52,506 nt of DNA from a virus: UHGV virus genome UHGV-0041832, one strand, 5' to 3'. Of the stretch, positions 5,799 through 43,651 are shown piece after piece. Below the pieces are notes generated by a model. It was not told where the DNA came from and searched no databases. It saw only the letters and a program-made list of their open reading frames with translations. Each line of letters opens with the position of its first letter. The first letter of the stretch is position 1. The position numbers and the translations under genes are program-made.

Positions 5799-6917
5799 TT
5801 ACAAAATGGAATATTCAGGGTAATAAACAAAGCGCCCAATTTCCCCATGATCCGGGCTGTAAATAATCACCGCTGCCAGACGCCGCGACCGCCAGCCGCC
5901 ATTAGTTGAATATGCGTCTTTGCCAGCTAATGTGCCGTGGTGCTCAACTATTCCAAGTGATGTTTCAACAACTGATTGATGGTGCAGATGTCCAGTGTGA
6001 GCGTAAACAGCCACAGACCTCCCGAAATCCTCCCGCCAGTCAGATACGCAAGCCGACAATAAATTTTCCGGCTTTTTGATAGTGTGCCCGTGGTGGTAAG
6101 CAAGGAATGTTTTGCCGTACTGTGTGTGGTGGACGATAGCAGGGGACACATCAACAGTTACGCGCGGTTCATCTTCGTAAAAAGCCGCCAGCGCCGCACG
6201 TAGCCAAATCATGCCAGACTGATCGTGATTGCCTGATAGTACCTGGATTTCAATATCCTTATGATTTAACAACATCTTTCCTACCGCCCGACGTACCGCT
6301 CGGATCGCTACATAGACAAGTTTTGCATAGCGTGAATCGCAATCCAGTACGTGATTGCTTGATGGCGTAACTGGCAACAGCCCGTCAGTGTGAAGAACAT
6401 CCCCACCGAGAAGCAAAACAGCTTTTTCAGACATCGGCGCAGCGCCCACCGCGTAGTCAAAGAATTCATTCAACACGCGTTCAGCGATCCCAGTGTCGTA
6501 GCTCTCGCCGCATTCAGCTTTATGAGCAAGCGCCCCGATATGCAGATCAAATACCGGATAAAGGGCCAGGCTTTTTTGAAAATCAATTTCAGGCACTGGC
6601 ACGGCCTCCGCGCGTGGTATTTCTTCCGTGAATGCGTCGCGGGCAGCTTCCATTAGCCTTTCCATTTCATCACGGTCACGGGCAGTTTTAATCCAGCGCA
6701 TGACCGTATTACCAGCCTTATCGACAAGAACAGATTCACCAGTAACGCCAAAACCAGGCGCGCGACGCGTTGATATTAAACCGCGTTTCGCCAGTTTTGC
6801 GCCTAGCCGCTCGACGTTGCGTTTTGACATGCCATATTTTTCAGCGATCTGCTTGTACGTTAAACCGTTGTTATATTCAGCGATCAATTGCTCATCGCTG
6901 ATTTTTCTTTGCGACAT
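5799..6917 (-). CDS. HTH domain fused to calcineurin-like metallophosphoesterase
   Basis: 372 aa; N-terminal HTH (LTYKQIAEKYGMSKRNVERL); all canonical phosphoesterase motifs visible in order: DLH, GDVLHTD, GNHD, YHHGH, GHLHH. Confidence 0.7.
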   Translation of the reverse strand: MSQRKISDEQLIAEYNNGLTYKQIAEKYGMSKRNVERLGAKLAKRGLISTRRAPGFGVTGESVLVDKAGNTVMRWIKTARDRDEMERLMEAARDAFTEEIPRAEAVPVPEIDFQKSLALYPVFDLHIGALAHKAECGESYDTGIAERVLNEFFDYAVGAAPMSEKAVLLLGGDVLHTDGLLPVTPSSNHVLDCDSRYAKLVYVAIRAVRRAVGKMLLNHKDIEIQVLSGNHDQSGMIWLRAALAAFYEDEPRVTVDVSPAIVHHTQYGKTFLAYHHGHTIKKPENLLSACVSDWREDFGRSVAVYAHTGHLHHQSVVETSLGIVEHHGTLAGKDAYSTNGGWRSRRLAAVIIYSPDHGEIGRFVYYPEYSIL

Positions 6918-6950: not shown

Positions 6951-7874
6951 TTATTGACAGCAAACAATCTCTTTATATGTTTCTTCTACCATGTCGAATA
7001 CTTCCGGCCTGTAATAAAAAAATTCAGTGCTACCATCAAACTTAACAGGGAAGTTTATTTTATAGTCACTGAAAGCATCGTGCATTTTGCTTTCTATTTC
7101 CTGCATAATCTCAGTAGGCCCATTCCATGTTTTAACTACCTGTAAATCAGTCAGCCTTACACCTGCCTTACGAGCACTTTTAAATACTCTGTTCCTCCTT
7201 TCGTTCTCTTTTACGCTTACACCAATTTTCATTTGTGTAGGCACTTCAAGATCATCAACCATGATGTAAAGTTTTCCGTTGTAGTGTGATAAAAACCCGT
7301 ATTTAGCGCATTTCGGGCAACCGCGCCCGCTCTTAATGTCTCTAGGTTTAGCCGACCACTCATGATCACAAACCTTGCAGCGGCATAATACTTTTGTACT
7401 GTTATTAACTATTTCAACCAGCACTTCAATATCAGGATTAACCTTAGCAATAGCCGATATTTGTTCTTCATGCGATATTTTTTTGCCTTGCGCTCGTTTT
7501 AGCACCGCACATTTCTGGCAACCGCTCCCGATCTTAAGGCTTTTAGGTGTAGAATACCACTCATGATCACAAACCTTGCAGCGGCATAATACTTTTATTT
7601 TGTCGCCGGTAATTTCCCCAAGCACTTCAATATCAGGATTAACCTTAGCAATAGCCGATATTTGTTCTTCATGCGATAACTTCATATTCCCAGCGCATTT
7701 CTGGCAACCACGTCCATATTTAATATTGCTAGGTGTAGCCGACCATTCATGGTTACAAACTTTGCAGCGACATAATACTTTTGTACTGTTATTAACAATT
7801 TCCCCTAACACTTCAACATCAGGATTAACTTTCGCGATAGCTGCAACTTGTTCTTCATGTGTTAACTTGCGCAT
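6951..7874 (-). CDS. Three tandem CxxC..CxxC zinc-ribbon repeats fused to a T5orf172 (GIY-YIG-like) C-terminal domain
   Basis: 307 aa; three ~64-aa repeats (HEEQxxAIAKVNPDxEVLGEI...KVLCRCKVCxHEW...GxGCxKC); C-terminal GKLYIMVDD...KIGVS...FDGSTEFF resembles T5orf172. Confidence 0.6.
   Translation of the reverse strand: MRKLTHEEQVAAIAKVNPDVEVLGEIVNNSTKVLCRCKVCNHEWSATPSNIKYGRGCQKCAGNMKLSHEEQISAIAKVNPDIEVLGEITGDKIKVLCRCKVCDHEWYSTPKSLKIGSGCQKCAVLKRAQGKKISHEEQISAIAKVNPDIEVLVEIVNNSTKVLCRCKVCDHEWSAKPRDIKSGRGCPKCAKYGFLSHYNGKLYIMVDDLEVPTQMKIGVSVKENERRNRVFKSARKAGVRLTDLQVVKTWNGPTEIMQEIESKMHDAFSDYKINFPVKFDGSTEFFYYRPEVFDMVEETYKEIVCCQ
7310..7874. repeat. Three direct ~195-bp tandem repeats inside the zinc-ribbon gene
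   Basis: Near-identical DNA segments (e.g. agcacttcaatatcaggattaaccttagcaatagccgatatttgttcttcatgcgata at 7425-7482 and 7624-7681); also evident as duplicated alt-frame ORFs 7375..7566 and 7576..7890. Confidence 0.85.
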
Positions 7875-9868: not shown

Positions 9869-10516
9869 ATGAAAACAAAATGGTATGACTTAGCAAAGCA
9901 GCTCATGCGGGCGCAGGGCATGAGCCAGGATTCACTCGCGGATCGTATGGGGATAACTAAAGGCGGCCTGTCACACTGGCTGAACGGTCGCCGAGAGCCA
10001 AATCTTGAAGATATTGCGCGGATTATGCGCGAGCTTGGTCGTCGGCAGTTTACTGTTACACATGATGGCATGGTCATTGATGATTCTGTTTCTAATACAC
10101 TTCAGGCCGTGCCGCCGCGTGATTTAGGTAGTTACCCGGTTATTGACTGGAAGGACACAGTAAACAATATGGATGACGCAAGGCGTTCAGCATTACGACA
10201 CGTTACGACTAGCGTTATTTGTTCAGATGACAGTTACTGGCTGGTTGCCAAAGGTGAATCAATGAACGCGCCGCAGGGGTTGAGCATCCCGGCGGGGACG
10301 ATGATACTTGTGGACCCGCACGCGCCAGCTATTGACGGCAAACTGGTTATAGCCCAGCTTGAGGAAGGGCAGATACCGACGTTTAAACAGTTGATTATTG
10401 ATGGAGGTCAAAGGCTTTTACGTTCGCTCAATCCGCTGTATCCGCCAATCCCTATGAATCCAGAATCAAAAATTATAGGCGTGGTGGTTGATGCGAAGAT
10501 CGTAAACCTGCCATAA
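9869..10516 (+). CDS. cI: CI-type prophage repressor (XRE HTH + LexA-like S24 peptidase domain)
   Basis: 215 aa; N-terminal HTH (SQDSLADRMGITKGGLSHWLNGRREP); C-terminal S24 fold with GESMNAP (Ser) and downstream Lys context. Confidence 0.9.
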   Translation: MKTKWYDLAKQLMRAQGMSQDSLADRMGITKGGLSHWLNGRREPNLEDIARIMRELGRRQFTVTHDGMVIDDSVSNTLQAVPPRDLGSYPVIDWKDTVNNMDDARRSALRHVTTSVICSDDSYWLVAKGESMNAPQGLSIPAGTMILVDPHAPAIDGKLVIAQLEEGQIPTFKQLIIDGGQRLLRSLNPLYPPIPMNPESKIIGVVVDAKIVNLP

Positions 10517-10545: not shown

Positions 10546-10753
10546 NNNNNNNNNNNNNNNNNNNNNNNNNNNNNNNNNNNNNNNNNNNNNNNNNNNNNNN
10601 NNNNNNNNNNNNNNNNNNNNNNNNNNNNNNNNNNNNNNNNNNNNNNNNNNNCTTTTCTTTGCCTGGAAAACACCAAAACGTAAACAGAAAACGTTATTTA
10701 TTATTTAAATATCAATGCCATATAAAATATTTTAAAAAAGTATACAAAATGGA

Positions 10754-18174: not shown

Positions 18175-18253
18175 TTTACAAAATGGAGTCATTGCGTGAT
18201 ATGGATCACATAATGTCGCTTTTCGCCTTGTTCTGGTGTATCCATTTTGTATA
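18175..18253. repeat. Inverted pair of dispersed motif (TTTACAAAATGGA ... TCCATTTTGTATA)
   Basis: Forward copy 18175-18187, reverse copy 18241-18253, in the gap between the MTase-like gene and ninG. Confidence 0.8.
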
Positions 18254-36600: not shown

Positions 36601-36756
36601 TTTCGTATTTCCTGTAACTCCCCGGCGCGATGCCGGGGNNNNNNNNNNNNNNNNNNNNNNNNNNNNNNNNNNNNNNNNNNNNNNNNNNNNNNNNNNNNNN
36701 NNNNNNNNNNNNNNNNNNNNNNNNNNGGGGATTTTTTTGTATGTGGAGCAAACAAA

Positions 36757-38555: not shown

Positions 38556-39032
38556 ATGTCTCAGACTTGCGAAAAAGGCACGTTTACAGGCCGTGACGTT
38601 GCTGTATTCTTCGCTATCGCTTGTCCAAATGCGAAGCCGGAAACTGGAGCGTACAAAGCGTTAGGCATGATGCGTGGTAAAACACTTTCCGTTGAATGGG
38701 AAACCGCTGACGCCACCGCCGATAAATCAGCCGATTACACGAAAGAATCAATGGTTACTTACAAATCCGTTTCTTTCTCCGGCGACGGTGTGTCCCGCAC
38801 TGAAGAAATCCATAATCAGAAAGCGCTGAAACGCCACGTAATTACGCCAGGTGAAACCACCGGATCACAACCTTATGTATGGCTGAAGATCGTTTCTCCT
38901 GTAGACGTAACTGAAGGCCCATTCCTTTGCACTTCCTTTAAAGAAGAAGATCCACACGATAATGTTTCCACCTGGTCCATTGAGTGCGAAAGCGCTGGCA
39001 AGGTAACGGTAGGCGACGTTCCGCCAGCATAA
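38556..39032 (+). CDS. Major tail (tube) protein
   Basis: 158 aa, strong SD (AAGAGGTAA), position before chaperone and tape measure; followed by GGGGCCATTTGGCCCC hairpin. Confidence 0.6.
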   Translation: MSQTCEKGTFTGRDVAVFFAIACPNAKPETGAYKALGMMRGKTLSVEWETADATADKSADYTKESMVTYKSVSFSGDGVSRTEEIHNQKALKRHVITPGETTGSQPYVWLKIVSPVDVTEGPFLCTSFKEEDPHDNVSTWSIECESAGKVTVGDVPPA

Positions 39033-39078: not shown

Positions 39079-39786
39079 GTGAATACTATGATCCATGTTC
39101 GTACAGGACAATTTGCGGCTGTGGTGAACGGTAAGCGCTATGAGTTTAATCCTTGCTTTGCTGCGATGGCTAAAATCGGCAACGATAGTGAGCTTGTCGA
39201 ATATTTCGCACTTATCCACGGCAGCAAATACCCATCACGATTGCCTACAGATCCAGACCTCCGCAATCGCATTATGGCGCGGTGTTATGGTGAGATAGTA
39301 CAAACGTCAATGCGCATCCTGAAATGTTGCTCAGACGACGAAATAGCCCCGTTATTGGGTGAATGTAGGTTAACTTCTTCCGGCAAGTTACGACTAAAAC
39401 CCGGACTGATGCCGACCAGTGACGTTATCACGCTGGCACAACATTGCATGTACCACGGTTTAATCGGTGACGGGCCAGAAGAAGACGCCGGAGAGAGCCG
39501 GGAAGGGGAATATAAGCCGACTTTTAACGTGCTGGAATTCGTTTATTCTGCCGTAGCTCACCTGGGGTTATCAGAATCAGAAGCATGGAATATGACAATG
39601 ACCGGATATAGGGCCGTTGTACGCGCTAAAACGCCGCCAGACGAAAGAAACGAGAGAAGCAAGCCAAACATTCACATAAATAAACGTGCTTATGACGAGC
39701 AAATGGAGGCCGCTAAAAAGGCACTAGAAAGAATGAAAAATCGTGAGCAAGAAAAGCCCGGTAGATCCGGGCGTTTTGCTAATTGA
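39079..39786 (+). CDS. Putative tail assembly chaperone
   Basis: 235 aa between tail tube and tape measure; basic/acidic C-terminus. Confidence 0.45.
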   Translation: MNTMIHVRTGQFAAVVNGKRYEFNPCFAAMAKIGNDSELVEYFALIHGSKYPSRLPTDPDLRNRIMARCYGEIVQTSMRILKCCSDDEIAPLLGECRLTSSGKLRLKPGLMPTSDVITLAQHCMYHGLIGDGPEEDAGESREGEYKPTFNVLEFVYSAVAHLGLSESEAWNMTMTGYRAVVRAKTPPDERNERSKPNIHINKRAYDEQMEAAKKALERMKNREQEKPGRSGRFAN

Positions 39787-40153
39787 AATCTTTAATTGCT
39801 GTACCTGGTGAACTGTGTGTGATTGTATTGTATACAGACTTTGCCTTACTGCGATCTTTCCATTCTTTTAGGATGCAGTTATCAAACTTTGCGATAACCC
39901 TTGAAGGGGATAATTCTTCAACATCCATGTAAGTAAATCCTATCGTGCTGGTTACTGAATACCATACGTGATAACTATAATTACCGTCATGCTCGATTCT
40001 TTGTGGTTCCCCCATTATTTTATTCACTTGCTCACAAGTCATTCCAACTTGCAAATTTTTATCAGCTAACTTAACGAAATCAGTTGATCTTGCGCACCCT
40101 GTAAGAGCTAAAGCCATAACACCAATGAGAACCGCTTTGATTATTTTTTTCAT
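39779..40153 (-). CDS. Lipoprotein with BamE/SmpA-OmlA-like motif (moron)
   Basis: MKKIIKAVLIGVMALALTGC lipobox; LQVGMTCEQVNKIMGEPQ resembles BamE-type fold; opposite strand within tail module. Confidence 0.6.
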   Translation of the reverse strand: MKKIIKAVLIGVMALALTGCARSTDFVKLADKNLQVGMTCEQVNKIMGEPQRIEHDGNYSYHVWYSVTSTIGFTYMDVEELSPSRVIAKFDNCILKEWKDRSKAKSVYNTITHSSPGTAIKDFN

Positions 40154-40163
40154 GATTTACCCC

Positions 40164-40823
40164 TTAATTCCAGTTGCAAGCGTTTTTCACTTTGTCGATG
40201 TGGTTATAAAGACCATCAATGTTAAACACTGCTTTCTCAATGTCGCCAGCTTCCGGCACTACTTCAATGATGAATTGTTTTTCGTTAACCAGTTTTTTAA
40301 TCATTGGGATGGCTTTTTTGCCGTCCCATAATCCAAGAGCTTTATAATTAGTTGACCGCCACCACTCAGTAGCTACAGCTTTGTGAACGCCGATCCGGTA
40401 GTTAATATAAGTAGTGTCCCCGGCGTCAGTTACATGGTGTGACCATGCTACGAACATTTTTGTTTTATTACCCTGGCAAGCGATTGTTAATACCGGTTTA
40501 TTCTTATCCTGTGCCTTCAGTGTCGGGAAAGCATCAAGACTTCCGCTGAATTGTTCTGCTTTCACAAAAAGGAATACGTTTTTTGCGTCCTGCATATCAT
40601 CTTTTCTTTCAACTACAAGCCACTGTTTACCAGCATTTTCTTTTTCTAACTGTGCATCGTATGCGGCTTGTTTTGCTTGTTGTTCTGCAAGCCATTTAGC
40701 ATTTTTCTCTGCTAATGCTTGTTGCTCTTGATTGGTCACTATAGGCGCTTTTTCATTATCCTCATTGCAACCAACCAGACCCAATACCGCCGCAATCATT
40801 GCCACTTTTGCTAACCGTTTCAT
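40164..40823 (-). CDS. Lipoprotein with N-terminal coiled coil (moron)
   Basis: MKRLAKVAMIAAVLGLVGC lipobox; 219 aa; opposite strand, upstream of the BamE-like lipoprotein gene. Confidence 0.6.
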   Translation of the reverse strand: MKRLAKVAMIAAVLGLVGCNEDNEKAPIVTNQEQQALAEKNAKWLAEQQAKQAAYDAQLEKENAGKQWLVVERKDDMQDAKNVFLFVKAEQFSGSLDAFPTLKAQDKNKPVLTIACQGNKTKMFVAWSHHVTDAGDTTYINYRIGVHKAVATEWWRSTNYKALGLWDGKKAIPMIKKLVNEKQFIIEVVPEAGDIEKAVFNIDGLYNHIDKVKNACNWN

Positions 40824-40870
40824 AACCCACCACGCTAACTTGATTTACTGACCATTCCCTTTAGCTTCCT

Positions 40871-40910
40871 TATACAAAATGGAGTCGTTGAAGTAAAGCC
40901 ATTTTGTATA
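40871..40910. repeat. Perfect 12-bp inverted repeat TATACAAAATGG-N16-CCATTTTGTATA (paired copy of dispersed motif)
   Basis: Read directly in the gap between lipoprotein moron and tape measure gene. Confidence 0.85.
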
Positions 40911-40950
40911 AAATAGATACACAGATCACATTTTTGCATGAGGTTAAATC

Positions 40951-43293
40951 ATGGCTACCAGTGTAGGTACAATTTATTACGAAGTTGATGCGAAAACTGG
41001 TCAACTTCTCGTTGCACAACGACAGGCAGACCAGGCCTTTGATCGTATAGAGCGCGGCGCAAAACAGGCTGACCGCCAGGTAAACACCCTGAAAACATCC
41101 ATCAAGGCACTGACCAGGGTTATCCATCTGCTAATTGCTGCGGAGGCTGTGCGCCAATTTATGGATATGGCGGAGCAAGCAAAAATGCTTCGCGTAAAAA
41201 TCAAAATGCTTACGGGCGATGCGGAGTCCGCCGGACGGGTTTTCGACGGCCTGAAAGCAATATCCAGGGAGACGGGGCAGAGCCTGAAAGATACTGGCGA
41301 ATTATGGCAAGGCCTGGCTATCTCACTAAAAAACACCTCCGCTACGGAAGGGCAATTGCTTAACCTGGTTGGCACTATTCAGAAAATGGGTGCATTAGGC
41401 GGCGCGTCAGCGGAACAGATGTCTAACTCAATGCGTCAATTCCGTCAGTCTATCGACGGCGGTGTTCTTCGTGCCGAAGAATTTAACAGCCTGCTTGAAA
41501 ATACGCCGACCATCGTACAAACAATGGCCCGCCATATGGGATTATCAATGGGCCAGTTCCGCGCCGAAATGCTGGACGGCAAGATCACGGCTGAAAGGAT
41601 GGTTAACGCAATACAGGCGGCTACGCAGGAAACAAACGATAAGTTTGCTCAGTTGCCGCGCACATCCGGCATGGCTATCAATGAGCTTAAAGTAGAAATT
41701 ATGGGCCTTGTTGAGCAGTTGGATGATCTTTTTGGCGTGTCAGATGGCGTTGTTTCAGCTATCGACTTGATCACGAAAGGCGTTAAAGGGCTTGGCGATG
41801 GCGCTAAATTCGCTAAAACCTGCTTCGACACACTCAAAACGGCTGGTAGCGAATTTATCGACATGTTTGATGATGTGGCTGTTAAGGCTGGAGAGGTGGC
41901 AGAGAAGATCATCGCAATGGTGACGCCAATCAAGGCGCTAATGGATGGCTATAAATGGATGAAGGAGGTAGTAGGAGAGCAAACCGACGAATATAACAGC
42001 AACTACGAGAAGAAATACGGGAAGACCGTTGGCAAGGTCATGCAACTACAGGATGATCTGACCGCAGCAATCCAGGCTACAGAAGAAGCAAGGAAAAATG
42101 AACAGAATGCTGCCAATGACGGAGCGATTACCGGATTCGACAAGCCAGTAGACAAGCCGAAAAAACAGAAAAAAGAGAAGAAATCGGAAGCTGATCGGCT
42201 TGGTGACAAAGGTATAAGCGTTTCTGATCAGTACAACAAAGACGCCGCCGCCATGCGCAAAGCGTTGGAGAACGGCAAGGCCATTGATGCTGCATTTGCC
42301 CAGGGTAAAATCACGCTCCTTGAGTACCGCGCCGCGCAAAAAGGGATCGGCAAGGAACTGAAAGAAGAATTAGCACAAATTCCGGTAGATGAATTGCGTG
42401 ATAAATGGTCACAAATAGTAAGCCCGATGGATCAGCTAAAAGGCGAAGTTGACCCCATCCAGCAGGCGCAAAATGAATGGGCCATCCGTAAGCAAATGCT
42501 TATAGACCTGGGCGCTACTGAAGCGCAACAGAAACAGGAATTGTTAGCCTATGAGCAACAGATCCGCGATCTGAAATGGGAACAATGGCAGGCGCAAAGC
42601 GACACAAACGGCCTTATCGGTGATTGTGTTAATGGCCTTAAAGGCGGAATGAGTAATGCGCTTGTTGGCCTGTTAAACGGCACTCAATCATTGAGTGATG
42701 TTTTTGCTAACTTAGGAAGCAATATACTCGGCAATATCGGTAACAGACTCTCAGACATAGCTGCAAACTGGATAGCAGATCAGATCATGATGGAGACACA
42801 AAGCAAGGCCACGCAAACAAGTACAACAGCAAGCGCGGTAGCAGCTCAGGGAAGCATTGCTGCGGCGGCGGCCCCAGCAGCGGCGGCAACTGCGGCGTCA
42901 ACTGGCGGTAGCTGGGCGGCGGCTGGTTCGGCGGCGCTCACTGCGATCATGTCGCTGGCTACGTCAATTTTCGGCGGCGGTCGCTTTAATGGTGGTAGCG
43001 TCATTGGTGGTAATATGTACCGCGTAGGGGAACACAACAGGCCGGAGCTATTCCAGACATCTAACGGCAATCAATATATGATCCCTGGCGAGAACGGCAG
43101 AGTTATTCCGGGCCGTGATATTGGCGGCGGTGGCGGTATTAGTATGCCTGTCAGTATCAGCATTCAGACCACGAACGGATTCAGCGACGAAGACAGCCGC
43201 AGACTTGAATTAACAATGGAACGTGTAGCCATGAAAATGATAACAAGGGAATCTCAAAGACCAGGCGGAATGTTGCAACCTCGCCGCAAATAA
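40951..43293 (+). CDS. Tail tape measure protein
   Basis: 780 aa, extended helical regions, Gly-rich C-terminal segment; upstream of M/L/K/I/J. Confidence 0.88.
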   Translation: MATSVGTIYYEVDAKTGQLLVAQRQADQAFDRIERGAKQADRQVNTLKTSIKALTRVIHLLIAAEAVRQFMDMAEQAKMLRVKIKMLTGDAESAGRVFDGLKAISRETGQSLKDTGELWQGLAISLKNTSATEGQLLNLVGTIQKMGALGGASAEQMSNSMRQFRQSIDGGVLRAEEFNSLLENTPTIVQTMARHMGLSMGQFRAEMLDGKITAERMVNAIQAATQETNDKFAQLPRTSGMAINELKVEIMGLVEQLDDLFGVSDGVVSAIDLITKGVKGLGDGAKFAKTCFDTLKTAGSEFIDMFDDVAVKAGEVAEKIIAMVTPIKALMDGYKWMKEVVGEQTDEYNSNYEKKYGKTVGKVMQLQDDLTAAIQATEEARKNEQNAANDGAITGFDKPVDKPKKQKKEKKSEADRLGDKGISVSDQYNKDAAAMRKALENGKAIDAAFAQGKITLLEYRAAQKGIGKELKEELAQIPVDELRDKWSQIVSPMDQLKGEVDPIQQAQNEWAIRKQMLIDLGATEAQQKQELLAYEQQIRDLKWEQWQAQSDTNGLIGDCVNGLKGGMSNALVGLLNGTQSLSDVFANLGSNILGNIGNRLSDIAANWIADQIMMETQSKATQTSTTASAVAAQGSIAAAAAPAAAATAASTGGSWAAAGSAALTAIMSLATSIFGGGRFNGGSVIGGNMYRVGEHNRPELFQTSNGNQYMIPGENGRVIPGRDIGGGGGISMPVSISIQTTNGFSDEDSRRLELTMERVAMKMITRESQRPGGMLQPRRK

Positions 43294-43379: not shown

Positions 43380-43634
43380 TCACTTATGAGTGCCTTTCAC
43401 GCCACATAACTTGTTATAGGCATGGTGCTCAACAATTAACCAAACCTTCAAATCTTCGCTAAACAGCCTCCAATCAAGATTGATATCCATTTTGTATCCG
43501 TAACCGTCGCGTAACTTTTTGGGGTAAACTTCTTTTCTCAGAAAGGCTTTAAGTAATTCCTTACCTTTCTTGATGATCCGGTCCTGTGCGTTTTTCTGTG
43601 CTTTCAGATTTCTGTCAATCGCTACCAGTTTCAT
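43380..43634 (-). CDS. Small basic protein, possible RelE/YoeB-like toxin (moron)
   Basis: 84 aa; segment QDRIIKKGKELLKAF loosely resembles YoeB DKRIVKKINELIKD; opposite strand between tape measure and tail M. Confidence 0.35.
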   Translation of the reverse strand: MKLVAIDRNLKAQKNAQDRIIKKGKELLKAFLRKEVYPKKLRDGYGYKMDINLDWRLFSEDLKVWLIVEHHAYNKLCGVKGTHK

Positions 43635-43651
43635 AACTCACCCCATCATCC

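Follow-up and report, generated by a model that had tools for sequence, protein, structure and literature searches.

The virus genome UHGV-0041832, analysed over its whole length of 52,506 nt (the window), carries two minus-strand lipoprotein genes, here called A and B, between a gene in the tail-assembly-chaperone position and the tape measure protein (TMP) gene. The window corresponds to a prophage belonging to the mEp021-like ("mEpimmI") temperate siphophages of Escherichia coli. Its nearest phage records are mEp013, mEp554, mEp021, and MagusPhagus, and several complete E. coli genomes carry prophages that are 100% identical over the region. Our favored reading, to which we assign a probability of about 0.45, is that A and B make up a two-cassette moron of this temperate siphophage, by which the prophage would exclude other phages at the level of the host envelope. 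The locus comprises the following features:

38556–39032: tail tube gene, in the left flank
39079–39786, plus strand: DUF6246 gene, the left flank, in the tail-assembly-chaperone position (Pfam PF19759, E = 3.9e-55; phrog_791)
39756–39772, both strands: predicted bidirectional intrinsic terminator GCCCGG-TAGAT-CCGGGC, a GC-rich hairpin with T-runs
39779–40153, minus strand: gene A, encoding a 124-amino-acid lipoprotein precursor; second cargo gene of the slot
40164–40823, minus strand: gene B, encoding a 219-amino-acid lipoprotein precursor; first cargo gene of the slot
40869–40897, minus strand: predicted sigma-70-type promoter of the B-A unit (-35 TTTACT at 40897–40892, 17-nt spacer, -10 TATAAG at 40874–40869)
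40870–40911: interrupted inverted repeat TTATACAAAATGG - 16 nt - CCATTTTGTATAA, located where gene B and the TMP gene diverge
40951–43293, plus strand: TMP gene, the right flank (Pfam TMP_3, E = 1.1e-49; phrog_1538)

A preliminary description of this DNA had reported two minus-strand open reading frames (ORFs) with lipoboxes at the positions of A and B, and both are indeed present. The precursor of A starts with the signal peptide MKKIIKAVLIGVMALALTGC, followed by ARST, and has the lipobox LTGC with Cys20 and an Ala at position +2. The precursor of B starts with MKRLAKVAMIAAVLGLVGC, followed by NEDN, and has the lipobox LVGC with Cys19 and an Asn at position +2. Each signal peptide consists of a charged n-region, a hydrophobic core, and a lipobox of the form [LVI][ASTVI][GAS]C, and the Gly-Cys of the lipobox is invariant across all homologues of A and B. 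Scanning all six frames of the window for lipoboxes returned six loci, namely A, B, an Rz1-like spanin at 27663–27857, and three others that we take to be spurious. The Rz1-like ORF, besides A and B the sole credible lipobox ORF of the window, lies on the plus strand and encodes a proline-rich lipoprotein with cleavage before TST; this ORF is nested within the lysis-protein gene, part of the holin-lysozyme-Rz cassette. A and B were rejected as spanins, since the region at approximately 26976–27925 already supplies the phage with a holin, a lysozyme, an Rz, and the embedded Rz1-like lipoprotein. According to the Lol-avoidance rule, lipoproteins without an Asp at position +2 go to the outer membrane. 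As neither A nor B has an Asp at this position, their expected location is the inner leaflet of the outer membrane.

Purifying selection acts on both genes, with pairwise ratios of nonsynonymous to synonymous substitution rates (dN/dS) against homologues of 0.21–0.26 for B and 0.07–0.16 for A. Of 5426 complete E. coli genomes, 14 carry the identical B+A pair, as do nine IMG/VR viral contigs. Gene A starts 10 nt past the stop codon of gene B and has its own GGGG ribosome-binding site, and hence the two genes are probably co-transcribed. At the other end of the unit, the 3' ends of gene A and the DUF6246 gene converge with an overlap of 8 nt. The latter gene had been named a tail chaperone; its position fits, and it is from position that the name derives, as DUF6246 has no assigned function.

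The proposal that the unit is a moron held up well. It lies on the opposite strand, has a low GC content, its own terminator, and a predicted promoter, carries varying cargo in syntenic relatives, and occupies the slot of HK97 gene 15. The GC content is 36.8% for A and 41.2% for B, whereas the flanking DUF6246 and TMP genes have 47.6% and 50.1%, respectively. Read on the minus strand, the predicted terminator at 39756–39772 follows the stop codon of A at a distance of 6 nt; on the plus strand, it falls within the 3' end of the DUF6246 gene. Equivalent minus-strand terminators are annotated in mEp013 (T16) and mEp021 (TERM_9). The cargo between the DUF6246 and TMP genes differs in mEp013, mEp021, mEp554, MagusPhagus, and the related loci L007, L009, L021, and L040. 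The first position of the slot is taken by B, a 138-amino-acid secreted protein, a 129-amino-acid secreted protein, or a 59-amino-acid membrane protein, and the second by A, a 106-amino-acid protein, or nothing; nearly all of this cargo is exported. The combinations observed were as follows:

B and A: nine distinct IMG/VR contigs
B and an unrelated 106-amino-acid protein: eight contigs
B-like protein alone: L007 and L030
A and the 138-amino-acid secreted protein: L040
A and the 129-amino-acid secreted protein: L009–L011
A and the 59-amino-acid membrane protein: mEp013
138-amino-acid protein alone: mEp021 and MagusPhagus

Thus, A and B assort independently among relatives and are separate cassettes, not a two-part system. 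This rules out an obligate pair, and the treatment of A and B as a single unit in the preliminary description has to be given up. The first gene of the slot usually opens with the signal start MKRL(A/I)K (window, 40806–40823; L009, 3579–3600; also L002 and L012). The 5' leader is likewise common to these genes, although the mature proteins are unrelated. This common start suggests a recombination junction inside the signal peptide, such that cassettes would be exchanged by recombination within the signal-peptide coding region, and the promoter, leader, and start codon appear to belong to the phage backbone. The slot behaves as a modular expression platform with a conserved predicted promoter, an inverted repeat, a shared MKRL(A/I)K start, swappable exported cargo, and a conserved predicted terminator.

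Protein B contains a VasI/TagO domain, an identity that is absent from the preliminary description. It matches the Pfam VasI/TagO model (PF11319) over residues 55–218 with an E value of 1.2e-15 and 58.1 bits, compared to a gathering score of 26.5, and its RefSeq name is "type VI secretion system-associated protein TagO". The cutoff of the NCBIfam equivalog TIGR03360 was not reached (47.4 bits; cutoff, 124.2). B is located outside any type VI secretion system (T6SS) cluster; it is flanked by phage tail genes, and all close homologues occupy the same phage slot. A review of T6SS accessory factors from 2026 (PMC13584744) still lists TagO/VasI without a known function, and so does PMC6653060. AlphaFold2 (AF2) models of A and B were of moderate confidence, with predicted local distance difference test (pLDDT) scores of 69–70, and were built on 9–11 sequences. 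The model of B (pLDDT 69) predicts a disordered tether, a long helix at residues ~31–63, and a beta-sandwich at residues 67–219, i.e., an IalB-like beta-sandwich on a helical stalk. The model resembles IalB of Bartonella (PDB 3dtd) at 8% identity; IalB comes from another phylum and context, and its own mechanism is unknown.

Alignment of B with VasI-like proteins of unrelated phages revealed 12 invariant positions. These include Cys116, Cys216 (within the C-terminal ACNW motif), Tyr142, Arg143, and Trp218. The invariant Cys pair suggests a periplasmic disulfide between Cys116 and Cys216. B thus shares with TagO/VasI proteins (PF11319, TIGR03360) the domain itself, and the Cys pair and C-terminal ACNW are common to the aligned phage proteins. 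It differs in lying outside a T6SS cluster, in scoring below the equivalog cutoff, and in having a lipid-anchored stalk in place of the N-terminal RLxCYD Cys motif that most phage VasI-like relatives possess. An iterated homologue search with the B alignment yielded nothing past the same 12 clusters, a plateau probably caused by the Q/A-rich linker dominating word selection. A sequence search of PDB gave no matches for A or B, and a fold search of BFVD returned uncharacterized phage proteins only.

For protein A, the preliminary description had noted a BamE/SmpA-OmlA-like motif. The superfamily was confirmed by the fold and by distant homologues bearing BamE domains, whereas the sequence itself is below the Pfam threshold: A scores 18.9 bits against BamE (PF04355), compared to a gathering score of 23.2, and does so over residues 33–51 only. 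DUF7738 and OsmE gave weak matches. The model of A predicts a BamE/OsmE/BLIP-like alpha-alpha-beta fold, and A combines the alpha-alpha-beta-beta-beta arrangement of SmpA/OmlA with a lipoprotein signal. A full-sensitivity search of 1.8 billion representative proteins gave only 11 hits, and most of the distant ones bear BamE, DUF3192, or DUF7738 domains. Cys40 and Cys93 are invariant. A differs from the BamE/OsmE/BLIP-like superfamily in its sub-threshold score, an extra C-terminal tail, and the conserved Cys pair, and nothing suggests that it joins the BAM complex. The fold family takes in protein inhibitors (BLIP) and the T6SS immunity protein BtiO. In another siphophage, a similar SmpA/OmlA gene adjoins the TMP gene.

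In the exclusion mechanism that we propose, an outward-facing conserved phage promoter by the inverted repeat would drive whatever cargo occupies the slot, antisense to the late operon, and transcription would stop at the bidirectional terminator. A and B would be exported by Sec, lipidated at Cys20 and Cys19, respectively, and Lol-sorted to the inner leaflet of the outer membrane. B would then hold a disulfide-stabilized VasI/IalB-like beta-sandwich ~5–8 nm into the periplasm on its helical stalk, and A would act as a compact binding module of the BamE/OsmE/BLIP fold. Expressed in the lysogen, the two proteins would guard its envelope by binding either the tail tip as it comes in or some component of the periplasm or outer membrane, and superinfecting phages would be blocked at or after adsorption.

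An anti-phage role of B is favored because of the slot shared with HK97 gp15, the exclusion lipoproteins of the phage family, VasI-like genes at conversion loci of other phages, and the protein SDIC4B. In HK97, gene 15 lies between the tail-chaperone and tape-measure genes, and the term "moron" was coined for this slot; gp15 is a superinfection exclusion protein, a small YebO-like inner-membrane protein encoded by a dispensable autonomous unit (PMC3594210). The present locus is alike in its position within a temperate E. coli siphophage and in being an autonomous and dispensable unit that encodes envelope protein. In contrast to gene 15, A and B are two outer-membrane-type lipoproteins of unrelated families, are encoded antisense to the late operon, and have no sequence kinship with gp15. 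Lipoproteins encoded in another slot of mEpimmI phages have been demonstrated experimentally to exclude phages (PMC11893012). These proteins, Lpp021 and Lpp010 (PF24052), resemble A and B, as do Cor and T5 Llp, in being small phage lipoproteins, and the lpp genes are also located on the minus strand in the tail module of the same phage family. Lpp021 and Lpp010 differ in that they are encoded downstream of J, have ~72 amino acids, and belong to the Phage_lipoprotein family (PF24052), while A and B are larger and occupy another slot; A and B were therefore rejected as candidates for the exclusion genes tested in that study.

SDIC4B is a VasI-fold protein of defence islands in Serratia and Enterobacteria that alone confers 10–200-fold phage protection in E. 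coli; it reportedly has no similarity to T6SS VasI by BLAST and is often encoded next to BrxR (bioRxiv 10.1101/2024.01.28.577318). B is comparable in being a single protein with a VasI-type fold that is encoded outside T6SS clusters in mobile or variable enterobacterial DNA. It differs in matching the VasI hidden Markov model directly and in lying in a phage tail module, and the two proteins were compared by description only. Genes encoding VasI-like proteins with signal peptides recur at lysogenic-conversion positions of unrelated temperate phages:

Brucella BiPBO1: directly downstream of the CI-like repressor
Labrenzia phage: beside the CI region
P88-like phages: between ogr and int
Pasteurella Pmp14: between a chaperone gene and a putative TMP gene

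This distribution shows that lysogenic-conversion sites repeatedly harbor a VasI-domain protein as selected cargo in temperate phages that are not related to one another. The case for A is weaker. It rests on the slot, the cassette turnover, the inhibitor-containing fold family, and the SmpA/OmlA gene next to the TMP gene of another siphophage.

The P2-like phages among the carriers (P88-like, 500465-2, PhiR44_2) have a two-gene unit between ogr and int/attP, by a hok/mok-like gene. The unit (2436–3666 in L041; 3358–4588 in L004 and L005) encodes a Zn-ribbon membrane protein and a secreted VasI-like protein of 297 amino acids that contains RLxCYD in three or four copies, and may represent the two-gene SDIC4 anti-phage system.

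The preliminary description had further placed a perfect palindrome at 40871–40910 and regarded it as the boundary of the pair on its promoter side. What is found there instead is an interrupted inverted repeat with two perfect 13-nt arms (40870–40882 and 40899–40911) around a spacer of 16 nt. It occurs with an exact 16-nt spacer in all 37 mEpimmI-type loci examined, with any cargo and even where the TMP is 31% identical. As it is kept irrespective of the cargo, the inverted repeat is a regulatory element of the phage backbone and not the edge of an insert. A role as an RNA hairpin was rejected, given its modest stability (z scores of -2.4 and -2.7) and the uncompensated arm variants of relatives; for the same reasons, a role at the DNA level looks more likely.

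Each arm contains the 9-mer TACAAAATG, of which there are 12 exact copies in the window (starting at 5800, 6939, 9786, 10743, 11422, 18177, 18243, 40873, 40900, 43488, 43879, and 43949). The full form of the motif is (G/T)T(A/T)TACAAAATG(G/T). With up to two mismatches, the 13-mer occurs 14 times in the window compared to 2.2 expected, and none of 100 shuffles reached 14. Almost all copies are intergenic and usually oriented toward a gene start, and six of them are arranged pairwise as inverted or divergent repeats (18174/18242, 40870/40899, and 43878/43946). The motif positions are kept in mEp021, where one copy lies upstream of the exclusion gene lpp021, a further likeness between that gene and the A/B locus. 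The motif, which is phage-specific, is not described in the mEpimmI paper; it may serve as an operator for the CI-like repressor (9869–10516) or as the site of another regulator. As candidates for a known host-factor site, the consensus sequences of DnaA, IHF, CRP, and TyrR were compared with TACAAAATGG, and none was convincing.

The same motif, TACAAAATGG (40908–40899), precedes the predicted promoter of the B-A unit. In a fixed-register scan (motif-N-(-35)-17-(-10)), this promoter has 9 of 12 matches, where the background frequency of at least 9 of 12 is ~0.4%; a generic promoter scan was silent because the final T of the -10 is missing. Two further sigma-70-like promoters are predicted to follow the motif in the same register, and all three are found at the homologous sites of mEp021:

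10743: early P_R-like promoter, TTGACT / TATATT, 10 of 12 matches
43879: predicted promoter of a ParE-like unit, TTCACA-17-TATATA, 9 of 12 matches

A second recurring element is a CRP-like dyad, (C/T)GT(G/A)A-N6-TCACA(A/T)AATG, at 18193–18215, 40917–40935, 44417–44439, and 51890–51912 (repeat family D9). The copies at 18193–18215 and 44417–44439 end in or just 5' of a plus-strand ATG, the latter before a gpL-like gene, and a weaker copy lies just 5' of the TMP start codon.

Several observations weigh against envelope-level exclusion. Neither A nor B matched PF24052, Cor, Llp, or Bor in a Pfam scan with E values of up to 1, although the control Lpp021 matched PF24052 at 5.6e-31; the comparison with Cor, Llp, and Bor made in the preliminary description stands as an analogy and not as family membership. 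The PADLOC defence models (2023), among which there is none for SDIC4B, likewise gave no matches for either protein. As SDIC4B is reported to have no BLAST similarity to VasI while B matches the VasI Pfam model, the two may belong to different branches. The cargo of the slot does not track the receptor, since mEp013 and mEp554 both use LamB and carry different cargo; receptor masking, as had been suggested, accordingly has no specific support. The -10 region of the predicted B-A promoter lacks the conserved final T. Finally, the layout of this promoter and its upstream motif are the same as those of the P_R-like promoter, so that the B-A unit could share early-promoter regulation, being repressed in the lysogen and expressed upon infection or induction only.

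Among the alternatives, lysogenic conversion for host fitness or virulence, which like superinfection exclusion had been raised in the preliminary description, is an unlikely but serious one. A and B would then act in envelope stress (OsmE-like), serum resistance (Bor-like), or adhesion and invasion (IalB-like). The likeness on which this draws is at the level of folds only and to proteins of unknown mechanism. The fast turnover of cassettes within one phage lineage fits conflict genes better than housekeeping-type fitness genes, and a surface adhesin would be at odds with an inner-leaflet location in the outer membrane. We consider it rather doubtful that A and B instead protect against interbacterial weapons (periplasmic T6SS effectors, the spike, colicins, or muramidases), as orphan immunity proteins would, or modulate the T6SS of the host. 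The VasI/TagO domain of B and the match of A to BtiO point in this direction, but no immunity role has been reported for TagO/VasI, and B is far below the TIGR03360 cutoff and lacks the RLxCYD motif of other phage VasI-like proteins. In addition, there is no effector gene nearby, and the BtiO match is weak and common to every BamE-like protein.

A function in lytic growth, either as an Llp-like receptor block on lysing cells or as an aid to injection or assembly, would have A and B expressed with the early genes. It is in line with the promoter layout shared with the P_R-like promoter at 10743, with the promoter region being a conserved backbone feature, and with the occurrence of VasI-fold proteins in virulent T4-like phages such as RB16 and Aeromonas phage 65.2. 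We nevertheless judge it improbable: the cargo is dispensable and interchangeable in close relatives and hence cannot be essential to lytic growth, the Q-dependent late operon runs antisense to the unit, which would oppose late expression, and the low GC content marks an acquired accessory. That A and B are decaying hitch-hikers or chance ORFs is effectively refuted by dN/dS values of 0.07–0.26, invariant lipoboxes and Cys pairs, compact domain models with well-scored cores, and an identical pair in many independent genomes, the narrowness of the family (10–12 clusters at 90% identity) being nothing specific in its favor.

Lipoprotein morons are already known as a route by which prophages alter the host envelope, and this category is not new; RefSeq already annotates A and B, and a description of the phage family appeared in 2025. 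The slot between the DUF6246 and TMP genes of this family and its cargo had not been studied before. The slot provides a compact source of candidate envelope-acting proteins against phages or competitors, and the phage family is a common one in the human gut. The recurrence of VasI-like genes, together with the SDIC4B preprint, opens a cheap test of the function of the VasI/TagO fold. A bolder extension of the exclusion reading, which we regard as a long shot, is that the VasI/TagO domain acts quite generally in the periplasm to ward off puncturing nanomachines. In T6SS clusters, VasI/TagO would serve to blunt incoming or sister-cell spikes; its lipoprotein or secreted forms, disseminated by the temperate phages that infect alpha- and gamma-proteobacteria, would obstruct the tail tip or the tape-measure conduit of superinfecting phages. 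If this were true, B would offer a first way into what TagO does, a question of long standing, and the mEpimmI slot would be a dedicated platform for exported anti-invader proteins.

The tail operon had been described as otherwise co-directional, which is not the case, as at least two further minus-strand units, at 43380–43807 and 51510–51758, lie antisense in the tail module. The first is a second antisense moron directly past the TMP gene. It encodes an 84-amino-acid ParE-like toxin (PF24732), preceded by a 51-amino-acid ORF with which it probably forms a toxin-antitoxin pair, and the cargo of this slot likewise varies between relatives. The second, downstream of J, encodes an 82-amino-acid secreted protein with a signal of the signal-peptidase-I type, MKKLIVACILSALSFGAFA followed by S, and without a lipobox; at this position mEp021 has the exclusion lipoprotein Lpp021. 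Adjoining this gene is a long inverted structure of poly-T, N-masked sequence, and poly-A (51343–51502).

Masked runs of N, all intergenic, are present at approximately 10547–10651, 36650–36740, and 51398–51445. One of them lies between the repressor terminator and the P_R-like promoter and makes the regulatory sequence there unreadable. A 35-nt repeat, TATTTTTCGCGTAGAAGCGCGTAAA(C/G)AT, is located at 31536–31570 and 43918–43952, each time ahead of the start of a structural gene (family D13). Within the minus-strand gene at 6951–7874, a 173-nt unit is present in three tandem copies at 7305–7864 (family D1).

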